Assembly: GCA_964351225.1 (NCBI GenBank)
Contig: CAYGNG010000003.1
Location: 20,478 to 84,477 of the forward strand
DNA from: an uncultured Gammaproteobacteria bacterium
GTDB lineage: Bacteria; Pseudomonadota; Gammaproteobacteria; CAYGNG01
DNA length: 64,000 bases
Direction of reading: 5' to 3'
Shown: in pieces, positions 56,612 to 63,839 of the stretch
Layout: every line of letters starts with the position of its first letter
Position numbering within the stretch: the first letter of the stretch is position 1
Made by a program: the position numbers and the translations under genes
Notes under the pieces: model-generated
Told to the model about the DNA's origin: nothing
Databases searched by the model: none
What the model saw: only the letters and a program-made list of their open reading frames with translations

Positions 56612-57566
56612 GACCGATGTCCTGCTCTCTGAAAAGGCTACTCACAATAGGTAAACACTGCATTTGTAATGTTGGCTCAAATTGCGCTTGGCATTGCACC
56701 AGTTTCGTCAGATCTAAAATGTGGACTTCATTGGAAAATAATTCCGATAATTGTGCAGTGATCGCTGAGCGGTGAGGCACAATGGGCGGCAGCAGTAAAC
56801 ACGCCGGAGCTGGTAACGATAATTGGCTGGTAAAATAATCATAGGTTCGGGTTATTTCTAATATCAAAGAATCTATTATTTTTTTCGTGCTGTCATCACG
56901 ATGACCATCACGGGATAATGCTTGTACCAGCACCTCATAATCCAAGTGAAATCGCCGAGAAAAGTATAAATTGCCATCTCGTGTCATGAGCACTTCACTG
57001 TTTTCTTTCGATAATGACAATATCGCCACGCCTTTGTCATTAGGATAAAACGCGCTGACGTTGCGCAATGCTAACTCGCTGACATCAATAACGTTAACAT
57101 TCAAACCGGCCGCATGAATGGCAGCAACCCCTTTTTGCAAGTATTCTAACGGACAAACCACGGCGACAACTCGTTTACGCGTATTGCCTGGACCATGAGG
57201 TGGGATTTTATAGATATCGATTGCCGCTAACTCAATGGGGTAATCAACCAAATCTTTCAATTGCCAGCGCGCTGCCAACGCCATTTCTTCATCCGGAACC
57301 TTGGGCTCCTCAATTTGAATGGCTTTGTACGCATCCGGCGCCAACACCCAAAACGTCGCAGCACCTTCCAGATGATGCTTTTTAACAAATGTCGCCAACG
57401 TCGCTGTCAAGGTGTCTTCGGTTACCTCGGGGAAAAATTCCACACAAACAATTTTGTATTTATTTTCAACAGATGGTAAGCCATACGCAACCGCTAACCC
57501 CTGATCACGAAAACCCACCGAACAGACTCCAGCCGACTGTGTGCTTGATCGCTTAAAAATGCCCAA
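56595..57566 (-). CDS. mshI: PilM-like MSHA biogenesis protein
   Basis: ARWQLKDLVDYP, IDVSELALRN, LEITRTYDYF; TTG start. Confidence 0.82.
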   Translation of the reverse strand: MGIFKRSSTQSAGVCSVGFRDQGLAVAYGLPSVENKYKIVCVEFFPEVTEDTLTATLATFVKKHHLEGAATFWVLAPDAYKAIQIEEPKVPDEEMALAARWQLKDLVDYPIELAAIDIYKIPPHGPGNTRKRVVAVVCPLEYLQKGVAAIHAAGLNVNVIDVSELALRNVSAFYPNDKGVAILSLSKENSEVLMTRDGNLYFSRRFHLDYEVLVQALSRDGHRDDSTKKIIDSLILEITRTYDYFTSQLSLPAPACLLLPPIVPHRSAITAQLSELFSNEVHILDLTKLVQCQAQFEPTLQMQCLPIVSSLFREQDIGHATTN

Positions 57567-57745: not shown

Positions 57746-58909
57746 ATGCCGAACCCTTTTCCAGATATATACGATATCAACACCATCAAAACGGTTTTAC
57801 TTGAAGATTTACCTCAAGAAAAAATTATTATCGAACAACTTAACCGCTACCAAGAAGGTCGTTGGCATCGCTTCGTTGAATCATTTCCCGTGGTTTTATA
57901 CCGATTCTTAGAAGGGATCGGCTGGACGCTAGGGGTTGCCACCATCGCAGCCCAAGTTTTTACGGCTTTGTCGGTAGGCGTTCCCGTCGCCATTGTCGTC
58001 CCTTTGTGTTTTTTCGTCGGTGTTGTTAATTTATTTAAAGCGGTATACAAACAAATTGAACGCATAACCGAAGCCAATCGATTAAAAACCAAAATTAATG
58101 ATTTGATGATGCAAGTCGCCATTCTTGACTACCACAATGGCTTATTCACTACCGCCATAGGCCGAAAAATCACCGCCCTTAATCGCCGACTCCCATCACC
58201 CGATAACTATTCTATACAGGGCTATAGAAAAAAACTATCCCACATCGAGAAAGAGAAGGGATTACAAGAAGCTAAATTGAATAATGAACTTAACTCCCGA
58301 GAGACCTGGTCAATACCCCAAATTTGTGGCCACTACGCCAAAGAGTTTTTTAATCGTTTCTTTGCTTTCTGTTCGGGGTTTGGATTATCCCTGACGGTGT
58401 TAACGTTTTTCTTACCGTTGATTTTAGCAACCCCAACCGGTTTACCCTTTGCCGCGATATATATCATTTGTACCCTGGTTGGCGTGTTATCCATGATGAC
58501 CGAATACATTGTATCGCGTAATCACGACATGCGCATGGAACGCTTACACCGACAAGATCGCTTATTCACAAACAACCGGGAAATTCATGAGACGTGCAAT
58601 GCTAGCCTCTGGATAATTTATGACGACATCAATAACTATGTCGCCGATATCAATGCCTCCTTGCTCAGTCAGCAAGAAGGAACCACACCAGGCGAAGCGC
58701 CCCCACTTCTTACCCCCACCACAACCAGGTCTTCTCACACACGAACCCAAAGCTATGCCCCCGGGCACAAGCGCTCCCCCTCTGAGTTCTTCTTCCAAAC
58801 CTATGCGGATGGTTATCGCAAGCGCAGCGTTCAAACATTTAATAAAGACGTAACCGCTGCTAATGATAACACCCTAAGAAGATCGCAGTCGCTCTGTGAT
58901 CTGGGGTAA
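57746..58909 (+). CDS. Hypothetical membrane protein, two hydrophobic hairpins each followed by coiled coil
   Basis: Two ~45-aa hydrophobic blocks; Ser/Thr/Arg-rich tail. Confidence 0.75.
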   Translation: MPNPFPDIYDINTIKTVLLEDLPQEKIIIEQLNRYQEGRWHRFVESFPVVLYRFLEGIGWTLGVATIAAQVFTALSVGVPVAIVVPLCFFVGVVNLFKAVYKQIERITEANRLKTKINDLMMQVAILDYHNGLFTTAIGRKITALNRRLPSPDNYSIQGYRKKLSHIEKEKGLQEAKLNNELNSRETWSIPQICGHYAKEFFNRFFAFCSGFGLSLTVLTFFLPLILATPTGLPFAAIYIICTLVGVLSMMTEYIVSRNHDMRMERLHRQDRLFTNNREIHETCNASLWIIYDDINNYVADINASLLSQQEGTTPGEAPPLLTPTTTRSSHTRTQSYAPGHKRSPSEFFFQTYADGYRKRSVQTFNKDVTAANDNTLRRSQSLCDLG

Positions 58910-58938: not shown

Positions 58939-61041
58939 CTACATTCCGCCCCGTAGACTGGCTTTGAATTTTTCCTCCAGCCCCGCCACAATTTTTTGAC
59001 GCAAGAGGACCGCCTCTTCCATCGTCAGGGTTTGCGTTTGCCCATTCAATTCCAAGCGCAAAGCCAGCGCCTTTTTGTCCGCTCCTAACTGTTCAGAACG
59101 ATACACATCAAACACTTCGATACCTTGCAACAATTCACCACCTAATTCTCGCGTGGTTGCCAATAGTTTTCCAGCGGGGATATCCTCATTAAGCACCATT
59201 GAGATGTCGAGCTTGATGGAAGGGAAACGCGGCGGTGGCACTACTTTATAATCTCGAGAAAATTGCGCCATCAACTTATCCAGATCTAAATCAAAACCCA
59301 CCACGCCTTGCGCCGGGATCCCGAATGCTTCGACCACCAACTCATGGAGAGTCCCCACCATTCCCCAACTCTCACCATTCACTACGATATTAGCGCATTG
59401 ACCCGGTCGAAAGGGTGGCTGTTCAACCGCGACAAATTCTGGCGTCAAACAATGACAGCGTTTAAAAAGATCCAGCACAATTTGTTTGGCATCATAGAAA
59501 TCGACACGGCGCACCGTGGCTTCGTGTATGGTGCCAGACTGTATTTTACCGGTTAACACGCCTGCCAATCGCTCGGGCTCAGAAGGCAATGCAGCCGAGT
59601 ACTTTGCCGGTATTTCCGGTAAAAATACCCGGCCGATTTCAAAAATTTGGCAGCTGGTCTGGTAGCGGCTATTAAACGCCACATGCTCAAGCAACCCAGG
59701 CAACAAGGTGCGGCGCAGTATCGACTTTTCATCACTCACCGGATTACGCAATTGCACATAGGCGGGCGTTTTTGATTGTTGCGCTTGGCCGGCCACCAAT
59801 TTTGCTTCCGTGGCCGGTGCCGACATACTATATGACATAACTTCTTGCAAGCCCAACTGCACGAGATGATCACGAATGGATTCTCGAGATTCATATAACA
59901 CGTTGCGTGGATGCGCCGGTATCGGTTCAATCGGCATGGTTTCTGGCAACTTGTCATAGCCATGCAGTCTCGCGATTTCCTCTAGTAAATCACAATCTCG
60001 GGTAATGTCTTCACGTTCAGACGTTATCGTTGCACGAATAATTGTGCCCTCCTCGATGAGTTGGCTGGCAATCCCCACGCGTCCTAAAATAGCCATAACT
60101 TCTTGTGCAGAGAATAGCGTGCCTAATGAGCTATTAATCCTCTCCAACTCAATGTCGACTCTCCTGTCTTGAATGGGCACCGTCAGCGTATCACCGAGCG
60201 CGACGACTTTGGCCTGCGGACAAATTGCTTTAAGTAATTCACAAAAACGCGCAATGGCTTTGGTTGTTAACGCCGGATCCACCCCTCGAGAAAAGCGAAT
60301 AGATGCATCCGTGAAAGTCTTACAGGCTGCTTGCGCGCGGCGAATAGCAATGTAATCAAAGCTTGCCGACTCCAAAAGGATTTTATTGGTTTCCAACCCA
60401 ATCGCAGTGGACCTGCCACCAACGACACCGGCAATCGCCACTGGTTTGTCTTGACAAACAATAATGGGCACACCTTTAGGAAGCGTTAAGGGGCTTTGTT
60501 CCTCCGTCTGAGCCAGGGTATGCAATGTTTCATTTTCCTTGCTTAAACGCACAGCAATCTCGGCGTTAGCCAGTCTATCGGCGTCATAAGCATGCGTTGG
60601 CTGACCAATTTCAAACATCACATAATTACTTAAATCAACCAGATTATTAATCGGTGTTACTCCAACGGCAAGCAACTTCTGTTGCAACCATAACGGCGAA
60701 TCCTCAATCACAACCCCATCAATTAATGCGGCACTGAATCGTCGACAACTGGTTGGGGTTTCAATTCGCGGATGAAGGGTTTGGGGAAAGGCTTCGAGAT
60801 TGGCGTACTGGGGCGCCCCAACATAAACACACTCGGTGATGGCTGCAACCTCTTTAGCAACGCCATGCATCGATTGACAACGAGCGATATTCGCCAAAAT
60901 AGAAAGCGTTAAATAGGCTTCCTCGCCGGATCGTTCAATTTCCTCCACCTCAATCCCGGCTACGGTTAGCTTTTCGGCAAGCTCATCCACTGAAAGATCG
61001 GTAGCAACTAAAGTTTTTAACCACGATAATGGAACGCGCAT
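58939..61041 (-). CDS. pheT: Phenylalanyl-tRNA synthetase beta, short and atypical
   Basis: MRVPLSWL, INNLVDLSNYVMFEIGQPTHAYD, RFSRGVDP, DLLEEIARLHGY, FDX-ACB domain; B2 OB-fold absent. Confidence 0.92.
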   Translation of the reverse strand: MRVPLSWLKTLVATDLSVDELAEKLTVAGIEVEEIERSGEEAYLTLSILANIARCQSMHGVAKEVAAITECVYVGAPQYANLEAFPQTLHPRIETPTSCRRFSAALIDGVVIEDSPLWLQQKLLAVGVTPINNLVDLSNYVMFEIGQPTHAYDADRLANAEIAVRLSKENETLHTLAQTEEQSPLTLPKGVPIIVCQDKPVAIAGVVGGRSTAIGLETNKILLESASFDYIAIRRAQAACKTFTDASIRFSRGVDPALTTKAIARFCELLKAICPQAKVVALGDTLTVPIQDRRVDIELERINSSLGTLFSAQEVMAILGRVGIASQLIEEGTIIRATITSEREDITRDCDLLEEIARLHGYDKLPETMPIEPIPAHPRNVLYESRESIRDHLVQLGLQEVMSYSMSAPATEAKLVAGQAQQSKTPAYVQLRNPVSDEKSILRRTLLPGLLEHVAFNSRYQTSCQIFEIGRVFLPEIPAKYSAALPSEPERLAGVLTGKIQSGTIHEATVRRVDFYDAKQIVLDLFKRCHCLTPEFVAVEQPPFRPGQCANIVVNGESWGMVGTLHELVVEAFGIPAQGVVGFDLDLDKLMAQFSRDYKVVPPPRFPSIKLDISMVLNEDIPAGKLLATTRELGGELLQGIEVFDVYRSEQLGADKKALALRLELNGQTQTLTMEEAVLLRQKIVAGLEEKFKASLRGGM

Positions 61042-61054
61042 GTCAAGCCTACCC

Positions 61055-62077
61055 CTAACTGAATTGATTTAAAAAACGCAGATCATTTTGAAAAATATAC
61101 CGAATGTCTTCAATCTGATGGCGCATTAAGACTAACCGCTCGATACCCAAACCAAAAGCAAGACCTCGCACTTTTCTGGGATCATACCCACCATGCTCTA
61201 AAACCACCGGATGCACCAACCCGGCCCCCAGCATTTCCAGCCATCCCGTGTGCTTACACACTCGGCACCCCGCACCCAAACATAAAGTACACTTGATATC
61301 CACTTCCACGCTGGGCTCCGTAAATGGGAAATAACTGCCACGCACACGAATTTGCTGATGTTCACCAAATAGATGCCGGGAGAACCGCAATAATATTCCT
61401 TTCAAATCACTAAACTTGATCTCAGGACCCACTATCAACATTTCGATTTGATGAAATTGGATTTCTGAACGTGGCGTCACATCTTCATAGCGATAGCACA
61501 AGCCTGGTAATACCACCTGCACAGGCTCAGGGGCAAATTGGCGCATCGCGTGAATTTGTCCCGGCGAGGTATGGGGTCTTAGCACCACCTCATCCGACAC
61601 AAAAAAAGTATCTTGCATGTCGCGCGCCGGATGATCTTTGGGAATATTTAAAAACTGGAAACTCATTTCATCGAGCTCAACATGAGAGCTCTCAAACACC
61701 GTAAAACCCATATTAGCAAAAATGCCGATGATCTCTCTTAGCATCCGGGTAACCGGATGATAGCCACCCGATTGCTTAGCGCGAGCAGGCAAGGTCACAT
61801 CAATCGCTTCGGCTTTAATTCGCTTAGCTAACTCAGCTAATTTAATAGACTCTTGTTGGTGTAAAAACATGGTCTGCAATTGTGCCGCGATTTGATTGAC
61901 TGTCTGACCATATGCCTTACGAGCGACCTCCGGTAACTTACCCACGTTTTTTTTGAATTGGTTTAATTGCCCCGTACGCGCCAGATGACGCTGGTGCCAA
62001 TGACCCAGGCTTGTTAATTCATCCAGTTGCTTCAGCTCAGCGCTTGCTGCTTCGAGGTATTGCGTTAAATCATCCAC
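61055..62077 (-). CDS. pheS: Phenylalanyl-tRNA synthetase alpha
   Basis: HPARDMQDTF, LRPHTSP, FHQIE, YFPFTEPS, AFGLGIERL; probable GTG start at 62077 (track 62134). Confidence 0.95.
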   Translation of the reverse strand: MDDLTQYLEAASAELKQLDELTSLGHWHQRHLARTGQLNQFKKNVGKLPEVARKAYGQTVNQIAAQLQTMFLHQQESIKLAELAKRIKAEAIDVTLPARAKQSGGYHPVTRMLREIIGIFANMGFTVFESSHVELDEMSFQFLNIPKDHPARDMQDTFFVSDEVVLRPHTSPGQIHAMRQFAPEPVQVVLPGLCYRYEDVTPRSEIQFHQIEMLIVGPEIKFSDLKGILLRFSRHLFGEHQQIRVRGSYFPFTEPSVEVDIKCTLCLGAGCRVCKHTGWLEMLGAGLVHPVVLEHGGYDPRKVRGLAFGLGIERLVLMRHQIEDIRYIFQNDLRFLNQFS

Positions 62078-62207
62078 GCTCTTATTTTCCCAGTCTGACA
62101 CAAGAGAGCAAACTATACAGAAATTCCCTAGCACAGAAAACCCAAGCCTTGCGATTTTGGCATCAGTAGTTGAAAATGGTGAAGATTAGCAGGAGAACAT
62201 CACGAAA

Positions 62208-63839
62208 ATGGAACACGAATCCATGGCTGTCGACGTCTTAATTGTGGGTGCCGGACCTTCTGGTCTGGCAAGCGCCATTCGGCTGAAACAATTATGTCAA
62301 GAGCGCGGCCAAGACTTAACCGTTTGCATTCTTGAAAAAGGCTCTACCGTAGGTGCTCATATTTTGTCAGGAGCAGTCTTACAGCCTTGTGCACTCAACG
62401 AATTACTACCCAACTGGCAAGAACAAGATCCTCCGCCCCATACCGCAGTCACCCACGATGAATTCTATTGGTTAACAAAGCATAAGGCGGTGCGCTTACC
62501 AACCCCTTCGCCCATGCATAACACGGGTAACTACCTCGTGAGTTTAAGCCAAGTCTGTCGCTGGCTTGGCACTATCGCCGAGCAAATGGGGGTAGACATT
62601 TTTCCTGGCTTCGCCGGACAAACCGTGTTATTTGACGATAACCACCGCGTGATTGGCATACAGACCGGCGACATGGGTGTGAATAAACACCATAAACCCA
62701 AAAACACTTTTCAGCCAGGAATGAATATTTACGCTAAGCAAGTGATTTTTGCCGAAGGGGCACGCGGCCATTTGAGTGAGCAACTCATCAAGCAATTTCA
62801 ATTGCGTCACCCGCAACAAGTGCAAACTTACGGTCTTGGCATTAAAGAAATCTGGCGGATATCGGCTAGCCACCATCAATTAGGCAAAGTGATCCATACG
62901 GTGGGCTGGCCTTTGGCGAATGATACTTATGGCGGCTCATTTCTCTATCACATGGCTAACCAACAAATAGCGGTGGGATTCGTCGTCGGATTGGATTATC
63001 GCAATCCCTACTTAAGTCCATTCCATGAAATGCAACGCTTTAAGCTGCACCCAAAATTCAAACCCCTATTTGAGAATGGTGAAAGACTTTATTATGGCGC
63101 CAGAGCATTGACTGAGGGTGGGTTTCAAGCCATTCCCAAACTCACTTTCCCAGGCGGTGTTATTGTTGGTTGCAGCGCTGGCTTCATGAATGTGCCTAAA
63201 ATCAAAGGCAGCCACACCGCCATGAAGTCTGGCATGCTGGCAGCGGAAGCCATATTCACCGCATTACAAACGGAACCCAAACCGGCGGCCATCCGCCACT
63301 ACCAAACCGCCGTCGAAAACAGCTCTATCTGGCAAGAGCTCTATCGAGCTCGCAACATTCGCCCCAGCTTCAAATGGGGGTTAATACCCGGCTTAGTTTA
63401 TGCGGCTATTGATACTTATCTTTTCCGTGGGCAAGCACCATGGACTTTCAGCCACCACGCGGATCATACCCAATTACTCAAAGCCAGCGCCGCCAAACCA
63501 ATTGAGTATCCCAAACCCGATGGTAAAATCACTTTCGATAGATTATCGTCATTGTATTTAACTGGCGTGCAACACGAAGAAGATCAACCAAGCCATCTGA
63601 AAATATTAAACGCCAGCGCCCCTATCGATATCAATTATCGACTGTATGACGCCCCCGAGCAGCGCTACTGCCCTGCGGGTGTCTATGAAATTTTAACCCA
63701 TGCTGACGATAAACCGTATCTACACATCAATGCCCAAAATTGCATTCACTGTAAAACCTGTGACATTAAAGATCCAACCCAAAACATTCGCTGGATCGCG
63801 CCCGAAGGAGGCGGTGGACCAAACTATACGGAGATGTAA
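62208..63839 (+). CDS. Electron transfer flavoprotein-ubiquinone oxidoreductase
   Basis: VGAGPSG, GAHILSGA, KGSHTAMKSG, YCPAGVYE, CIHCKTCDIKDP. Confidence 0.96.
   Translation: MEHESMAVDVLIVGAGPSGLASAIRLKQLCQERGQDLTVCILEKGSTVGAHILSGAVLQPCALNELLPNWQEQDPPPHTAVTHDEFYWLTKHKAVRLPTPSPMHNTGNYLVSLSQVCRWLGTIAEQMGVDIFPGFAGQTVLFDDNHRVIGIQTGDMGVNKHHKPKNTFQPGMNIYAKQVIFAEGARGHLSEQLIKQFQLRHPQQVQTYGLGIKEIWRISASHHQLGKVIHTVGWPLANDTYGGSFLYHMANQQIAVGFVVGLDYRNPYLSPFHEMQRFKLHPKFKPLFENGERLYYGARALTEGGFQAIPKLTFPGGVIVGCSAGFMNVPKIKGSHTAMKSGMLAAEAIFTALQTEPKPAAIRHYQTAVENSSIWQELYRARNIRPSFKWGLIPGLVYAAIDTYLFRGQAPWTFSHHADHTQLLKASAAKPIEYPKPDGKITFDRLSSLYLTGVQHEEDQPSHLKILNASAPIDINYRLYDAPEQRYCPAGVYEILTHADDKPYLHINAQNCIHCKTCDIKDPTQNIRWIAPEGGGGPNYTEM

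Follow-up and report, generated by a model that had tools for sequence, protein, structure and literature searches.

The window, a stretch of 64,000 nucleotides from a contig of an uncultured gammaproteobacterium (GenBank assembly GCA_964351225.1, contig CAYGNG010000003.1), encodes both subunits of phenylalanyl-tRNA synthetase (PheRS) on its reverse strand. The pheT gene (58939..61041, ATG start) specifies a beta subunit of 700 amino acids with the domains B1, B3/4 (editing), B5, B6/7 (catalytic-like) and B8 (the FDX-ACB anticodon-binding domain) and with no B2, and pheS (61055..62077, GTG start) specifies an alpha subunit of 340 amino acids that consists of an N-terminal coiled coil and a class II catalytic core. 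The longest pheS frame starts at an alternative GTG at 62134 and would yield 359 amino acids; the 340-amino acid form is identical to a database protein of that length. On one side, the pair is flanked by the gene for ETF-ubiquinone oxidoreductase (ETF-QO; 62208..63839, forward strand), a native gene of the class in divergent orientation to pheS, and, downstream of pheT, lie the genes pilQ-pilP-pilO-pilN-pilM (53327..57566, reverse strand; the pil genes were named by matching the loci to one another rather than by a family scan). Thus, as the initial annotation of this DNA noted from the sequence alone, the neighbors are not rplT and ihfA, and rplT is found on a different contig. The source genome (G000) is a 2.34 Mb draft in 63 contigs that is scored as 100% complete, with 0% contamination, and the pheST pair is located centrally on a contig of ~106 kb (105,981 nucleotides).

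The absence of B2 from PheT is real and the domain is cleanly excised. Among the Pfam families, PheT matches B3_4 (PF03483, E 4.5e-55), B5 (PF03484), the beta-chain CLM domain (PF17759) and FDX-ACB (PF03147), the last three all over their cut-offs, and there is no match to tRNA_bind (PF01588) at E <= 0.01. The bacterial beta-chain model TIGR00472 is matched with 518.4 bits (cut-off 402.65), only over the profile positions 1–41 and 160–798, with 42–159 left unmatched; B2 is usual in this family, yet the cut-off of the model can be reached without it. In the alignment with the beta chain of Staphylococcus haemolyticus, residue 35 of PheT corresponds to residue 35 and residue 47 to residue 163, and in an alignment of 196 rows PheT has no residues in the 202 columns of B2, the gap falling between residues 39 and 40. 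The junction in B1 (PheT residues 36–46, ERSGEEAYLTL; 60904..60936, reverse strand) marks the point at which other bacterial PheT proteins carry the B2 OB fold of ~115–128 residues. The initial annotation had the sequence AGIEVEEIE running directly into YLTLSILANIARCQS, which is nearly exact: six residues (RSGEEA) lie between the two. An AlphaFold model of PheT built from an alignment of 55 relatives (a single-sequence model with a pLDDT of 32 was discarded) has a pLDDT of 93.2, with values of 90–96 across residues 1–70, and the strands 32–38 and 41–46 form a hairpin at the junction.

Both chains are of the bacterial type. The closest structural matches of the PheT model are all bacterial PheRS beta chains; an archaeal or eukaryotic type of beta chain was considered and rejected, given 138.2 bits against TIGR00471 (cut-off 282.65) and the presence of B8/FDX-ACB. 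PheS scores 287.5 bits against TIGR00468 (cut-off 237.45) and matches PF01409 (E 4e-84) and PF02912 (36.4 bits versus 22.3). A genome-wide profile search detects a single TIGR00468 locus and a single TIGR00472 locus, i.e. one pheS and one pheT, and no second pheST elsewhere in the bin. Because this is the only pheST of a genome scored as complete, the pair is a replacement and not the second copy that the initial annotation had offered as an option. A stand-alone Trbp/CsaA-like protein that would take the place of B2 was considered as well and rejected: the only other match to PF01588 in the genome sits inside a 673-amino acid frame, which is probably MetRS.

PheS and PheT are both members of a separate lineage of bacterial PheRS that is encountered mostly as Myxococcota-labelled proteins from metagenome-assembled genomes (MAGs), is sister to the Chloroflexota enzymes and stands apart from the typical PheRS of the class. 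Among the 399 scored genomes of the class (the unpublished genomes G038, G140, G295 and G307 are counted in this and the other class tallies and in the operon count given below, and one row of the ThrS tree comes from them; no conclusion depends on them alone), PheS is 67% identical to its counterparts in G003 and G082, 56% identical to that in G092 and at most 47% identical to the other matches listed; the identity to Myxococcota-labelled PheS is 56–61%. For PheT, the identity is 47% with G003 and 25–34% with the other 37 relatives that have a match. The control proteins of the same genome show no such break: ThrS is 61–68% identical over ~150 class matches listed, with no gap, and the identities of ETF-QO are graded (61% to G003, 59% to G001, 57% to G005; 57–61% overall, including G019). 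No gammaproteobacterium is a named source among the 120 listed database matches for each subunit, most of which are nameless. The named sources of the PheS matches are Myxococcales, Polyangiaceae, Myxococcaceae, Myxococcota, ‘Deltaproteobacteria’ and Bacteroidia, and the PheT matches come from these groups as well as from Chitinophagaceae and several classes of Chloroflexota.

Phylogenetic trees of both subunits yield the same picture. In the FastTree phylogeny of PheS (237 rows, after removal of exact duplicates, of open reading frames (ORFs) running off the locus and of lengths outside 300–460 amino acids), a starred split with a support of 99 separates 35 typical class kin, themselves a single starred clade (99), together with Thermodesulfobacteriota, Bacteroidota, Bacillota, Nitrospirota and Binatota, from six Chloroflexota and 123 further rows, among them the window, G003, G082 and G092. 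In an IQ-TREE analysis of 70 hand-picked, balanced rows (quick search, LG+C20+F+G4 with PMSF), 18 kin form one clade (99, starred), and the window falls within a 26-row clade (99, starred) that has Chloroflexota as its sister and includes proteins labelled Myxococcales, Polyangiaceae or Myxococcaceae. Forcing the 18 kin together with five window-type rows from four genomes costs 296.4 log-likelihood units, with p-AU of 2.68e-05 under the mixture model in the approximately unbiased (AU) test. The PheT trees, calculated without the B2 columns, recover a starred window lineage of 76 rows with a support of 100 (FastTree, 196 rows), and the support is 99, again starred, in IQ-TREE (LG+G4, 66 rows). 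In the class, this type of PheRS is present in only three of the 399 genomes (G003, G082 and G092), and none of the 400 genomes of the phylum sample yields a further carrier at E <= 1e-110. The PheS of a MAG labelled Ectothiorhodospiraceae (L062) falls among those of Bacteroidota and Ignavibacteriota and matches them in the style of motif 2, owing either to a further transfer or to a contig that was mis-binned.

The foreign lineage is recognizable by signatures in both subunits that it does not share with the class kin. Motif 2 of PheS (residues 192–213; 61439..61504, reverse strand) reads GLCYRYEDVTPRSEIQFHQIEM, as the initial annotation had it, its loop exceeding that of the class kin by one residue. 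The corresponding style, C[YF]Rx-E[DNQ]-[IV]T[PAT]RSE[IM]QF[HN]Q, is found in all 27 rows of the window clade and in all five Chloroflexota rows, so that the likeness to Chloroflexi enzymes that the initial annotation had suggested holds; by contrast, the typical class kin (18 of 18) have VYR[CR]-DS-...[TR]H[TS]P-MFHQ, and the Pseudomonas aeruginosa enzyme is of the same style. In PheT, the segment past the insertion point of B2 reads ILANIARCQS, or a close variant, throughout the window clade, compared with TPNRxDCL in the classical enzymes. The TPNRxDxLS motif is therefore altered, as had been stated, but not as a by-product of the missing domain: ILANIARCQS is also present in G003, G082 and P0003, which have B2, and the alteration is accordingly a signature of the lineage.

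The operon slot in which the native genes would be expected is preserved and contains no pheST. On the reverse strand of contig C22 of the source genome, thrS, infC and rplT are followed by an ORF of 433 amino acids, then by a 2OG-Fe(II) oxygenase gene on the other strand, ihfA (NF001401, 157 bits versus a cut-off of 111) and merR. The emptied slot (L128, 1266–3402 of C22) is thus occupied by the 433-amino acid ORF, which has no family in Pfam or NCBIfam, and the 276-amino acid oxygenase. No remnant of pheS or pheT is detectable there in a tblastn search with two PheS and two PheT sequences of the kin (best E 0.057 over 25 amino acids). A comparison of coordinates shows that thrS and pheT lie <5 kb apart on the same strand in 28 of the 38 relatives that yielded both genes, so that the usual operon is the ancestral state of the class; in nine relatives, including G003 and G019, the two genes are on separate contigs, and in one, G012, they are 114 kb apart. 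In G012, a closed single contig (C1, with the two loci at 2237580–2240991 and 2355055–2356950), pheST is of the classical type, which indicates that relocation without replacement also occurs in the class.

The new location is shared with the other carriers. In G003, ETF-QO is next to pheS-pheT (PheT of 827 amino acids), which is followed by pilMNOPQ; G082 has pilM, three ORFs, pheT (837 amino acids) and pheS next to ETF-QO; and in G092, pheT (a 680-amino acid frame) and pheS again adjoin ETF-QO. In six of six ordinary kin, for which 13–17 kb around ETF-QO were fetched, there are no pheS, pheT or pil genes near it. The slot is closed in G003 and G092, where ihfA comes immediately after rplT; no rplT was found in G082, a genome with a completeness of 85%. 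The source genome and G003 are sisters in a starred clade (99) of the ThrS tree (32 rows). In the window, a 387-amino acid ORF (57746..58909, forward strand) lies between pilM and pheT, on the strand opposite to both, and has no Pfam or NCBIfam match other than a sub-threshold hit to DUF7176. The number of ORFs at this site varies among the genomes, with none in G003 and three in G082, i.e. the pilM-pheT interval is a variable insertion site. The codon usage of pheS and pheT (81st and 15th percentiles, respectively, among the genes of the genome) is in range and the GC content of pheT is mildly elevated (49.0% versus 43.7% for the genome), features that fit an old transfer. Together with the shared location, the data fit a single ancient acquisition beside ETF-QO, after which the native pair was lost and the new one was inherited vertically.

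The loss of B2 is a later event. In the IQ-TREE phylogeny of PheT, the window and P0002 form a starred pair (97) nested in an eight-row clade (100, starred) in which the other six rows have B2; in G003, G082 and P0003, the tRNA_bind match is full-length, at 20.8–23.4 bits, under the cut-off of 27. Given this nesting among B2-bearing rows, the loss of B2 in the window is secondary. Across the 196 rows of the alignment, 19 have at most eight residues in the B2 columns, which requires seven changes on the tree; starred branches force seven changes in FastTree and at least six in IQ-TREE. Four of the seven fall in the window lineage (the window with P0002; P0005–8; P0040; G092) and three among the classical enzymes (L033; two Nitrospirota; eight rows of the Binatia/Syntrophobacter type). 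These tallies are floors because P0052, scored as B2-bearing under the threshold of <40 residues in the B2 columns, has a Pfam layout without B2; with P0052 counted, B2 has been shed at least five times within the 76 rows of the window lineage. Among the loci sampled, L029, L045, L064, L070, L072, L079, L080, L085, L092, L094 and L033 encode B2-less PheT proteins of 682–762 amino acids. These PheT rows, from Nitrospirota, Binatia, the Syntrophobacter type and others, keep the classical TPNRxDCL, and the respective PheS proteins keep the classical motif 2.

The enzyme retains the residues expected of a working PheRS. In alignments with 4P71_C, 2RHQ_A and 3PCO_A, PheS has the class II motif-2 arginine, the FHQ..E element and the FPFTEPS loop, and T253 and A307 of the alpha subunit, aligned with Escherichia coli T251 and A294, are conserved. 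In PheT, H150, G208, E224, T244 and A246 correspond to E. coli H265, G318, E334, T354 and A356 and are all conserved, the first three being invariant among the 55 relatives; these alpha and beta positions have roles in specificity and editing. A canonical tRNA-Phe(GAA) gene is present in the genome. From the conserved residues, an ordinary, editing-competent PheRS is expected, and because the catalytic, specificity and editing residues are kept, the altered specificity or inhibitor resistance that the initial annotation had raised receives no support. The protein would be the single working (alpha-beta)2 PheRS of the cell, in which phenylalanine would be activated on the alpha subunit, tRNA-Phe would be bound at its anticodon via B8 and the alpha coiled coil, and Tyr-tRNA-Phe would be edited in B3/4. 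PheS additionally contains a CxxC...CxxC knuckle (C263, C266, C271 and C274, within residues 263–274; 61256–61291, reverse strand), which is also present in the P. aeruginosa and S. haemolyticus enzymes and which the aligned E. coli PheS lacks. ARAGORN finds 26 tRNA genes in the genome, none of them for Asp, Cys, Gly, Ile or Tyr despite the completeness score of 100%; the missing loci are probably unassembled.

The observations are very probably explained by a xenologous displacement, in which a foreign pheST of bacterial type replaced the native pair in an ancestor and B2 was lost afterwards. The placement of both subunits outside the clade of typical kin (support 99–100), the result of the AU test and the empty slot all agree with the horizontally acquired replacement that the initial annotation had considered. 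Under the displacement scenario, pheS and pheT would have arrived together by horizontal transfer from a bacterium with a distinct PheRS lineage, one whose known members today come mostly from metagenome bins labelled Myxococcota and which has the Chloroflexota enzymes as its sister group. The site of insertion would have been the interval from ETF-QO to the pilMNOPQ operon, and the recipient an ancestor that the source genome has in common with at least G003 and G082; the native pheST between rplT and ihfA may then have become redundant and been deleted. B2, itself an insert within B1, would have been excised later, on the branch leading to the source genome and P0002, its nearest metagenomic relative, leaving a tight hairpin.

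Several points weigh against this history or complicate it. The trees are unrooted, and we infer the direction of transfer from the rarity of this PheRS in the class (three of 399 genomes), its absence from the 400 genomes of the phylum sample, the position of the carriers inside a larger clade and the native slot left without pheST. Of the 123 PheS rows on the side of the window, the majority have no taxon label, so that a Myxococcota-like donor is suggested by ~10 source names, and some Myxococcota-labelled genomes (L061 and L073) have the classical type. The groups compared in the AU test, although they follow the taxonomy, were fixed after the first tree had been seen, and the support values are SH-aLRT values from a quick IQ-TREE search. 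G092 has the synteny and the signatures in common with the other carriers but groups elsewhere in the ThrS tree (support 94, with a poorly resolved backbone) and its PheT branch has a length of ~2.0; this genome may have acquired its PheRS separately. Finally, G019 clusters with the source genome and G003 on the basis of ThrS, but its PheRS is a different one, on a long branch and without B2, and is encoded at a third locus (L184; G019:C11, 7656–10760, between recO/pdxJ-like and transketolase-like ORFs), which implies that the history of this group includes more than one event. The PheS of G019, with a branch of 1.92, falls in no starred set. G019 and its family-mate G235 (L186) have PheT frames of 695 and 689 amino acids, respectively, both without B2, and very long-branch PheS proteins on the classical side of the tree.

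The very long branches of G092 PheT and G019 PheS, along with the small genomes of the carriers (1.5–2.3 Mb), could be taken to mean that the window pair is the native pheST of the class, vertically inherited, fast-evolving, rearranged and misplaced by a long-branch artefact. The branches of the window itself, however, are not long (0.22–0.28 for PheS and 0.52–0.58 for PheT), its PheS is closer to Myxococcota-labelled proteins than to the class kin among the matches listed, and the motif signatures and the one-residue indel are common to Chloroflexota and the window clade. Moreover, a misplacement would have to overcome p-AU of 2.7e-05 under a mixture model, and neither ThrS nor ETF-QO of this genome shows any anomaly. 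Three genomes of the class do group with the window, but the whole group lies inside a clade devoid of typical class kin, and two of the three keep B2. Vertical inheritance is, therefore, highly improbable. Export in the opposite direction, with the window-type PheRS native to a small group of the class and passed on to Myxococcota-like and other bacteria, is compatible with trees that lack a root and with close rows that are mostly unlabelled and so do not name a donor. Nevertheless, such an export is quite improbable, considering that the class carriers account for only 11 of the 123 non-Chloroflexota rows on the window side of the PheS tree, that the type is as rare in the class and the phylum as stated above, and that the carriers retain the thrS-infC-rplT-()-ihfA frame, which is filled by pheST in 28 of the 38 relatives and which implies that they once had pheST there.

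A pheST contig that comes from another organism through faulty assembly or binning is conceivable in a 63-contig draft in which ARAGORN detects only 26 tRNA genes; given that the pair lies mid-contig, between flanks of normal class affinity (ETF-QO is 57–61% identical to the proteins of G003, G001, G005 and G019), in a bin with an estimated contamination of 0% and no other pheST, and that three other genomes share the gene order, the probability of this artefact is practically negligible. An auxiliary PheRS, resistant to an inhibitor or altered in specificity and serving self-protection or the charging of phenylalanine analogues, would have general precedents among extra aminoacyl-tRNA synthetase (aaRS) copies, which can confer resistance, and the unusual motif-2 loop could be read in the same sense. 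There is, however, no housekeeping copy for it to supplement, the neighbors are ETF-QO and pil genes and not biosynthetic genes, the residues aligned with E. coli alpha T251 and A294 and those of the editing site are conserved, and the style of motif 2 is common to the whole large lineage, so that this explanation has very little to recommend it.

Compared with the canonical bacterial enzymes (Thermus thermophilus 1PYS/2IY5, E. coli 3PCO, P. aeruginosa 4P71 and S. haemolyticus 2RHQ), the window PheRS has the same alpha coiled coil and class II core and the same B1, B3/4, B5, B6/7 and B8 domains in the beta subunit, with the editing and specificity residues conserved. It differs in the absence of the B2 domain of ~115–128 residues, an EMAP II-like OB fold, in motif 2 (E-D-V-T-P-R-S-E-I-Q, one residue longer, versus D-S-D-x-T-H-x-P-M), in the ILANIARCQS segment versus TPNRxDCLS of the beta subunit and in the location of the genes outside the infC-rpmI-rplT-pheST-ihfA operon. 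The description of B2 as an EMAP II-like domain follows a review from the Safro laboratory (PMC3275996).

The closest parallel to the displacement is the archaeal-type PheRS of Spirochaeta, Borrelia and Treponema, for which both subunits are described as acquired together by horizontal transfer in an ancestor, whose own enzyme they replaced (Andam and Gogarten 2011, PMC3191353). The two cases have in common the joint transfer of the subunits, the replacement of the native pair and the inheritance of the acquired one as a shared derived character. They differ in that the donor type is bacterial in the window, where the beta subunit keeps B8 and exceeds the TIGR00472 cut-off, and in that both the emptied operon slot and the new insertion site are visible. 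With regard to the missing domain, PheRS beta subunits without B2 are known, from a remark in print, in bacteria of the CPR group (Mukai et al. 2017, PMC5370408). The PheT of the window resembles those proteins, as they are characterized there, in being a natural bacterial beta subunit without the B2 OB fold, and is unlike them in belonging to a different lineage and phylum and in a loss that can be dated against B2-bearing sisters and that is one of at least seven independent losses in the 196-row sample. Beyond that remark, the literature searches yielded no B2-less PheT outside CPR bacteria, and one for aaRS transfer in Legionellales found nothing.

The replacement of an aaRS by a foreign version is textbook material, and no concept is changed by the present case: gene displacement and secondary domain loss, the latter already in print for CPR bacteria, make this an ordinary kind of event, of which the window is a clean new example. 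Its value lies in being datable, with the emptied slot, the new insertion site and the B2-bearing sister genomes all preserved. As a shared derived character, the swap can mark a group of (apparently) Gammaproteobacteria that has small genomes and is poorly sampled; for these genomes, neither annotation pipelines nor marker sets based on operons should count on pheST following rplT. As judged from the Nitrospirota, the Binatia/Syntrophobacter type, the window lineage and others in the sample, natural bacterial PheRS enzymes do without B2 much more frequently than the lone published remark on CPR bacteria implies, and its later loss in the window can be compared with closely related enzymes that have it.

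To our knowledge, the role of B2 has never been settled. It is conceivable, if rather doubtful, that the window-type lineage amounts to a natural deletion series for this domain. Should the weakness of B2, the ILANIARCQS segment and the longer motif-2 loop turn out to be linked, the lineage would handle the acceptor or elbow side of the tRNA differently from classical PheRS and would have made B2 dispensable. If this is true, a comparison of B2-plus enzymes of the G003 type with B2-minus enzymes of the window type could assign a function to B2.

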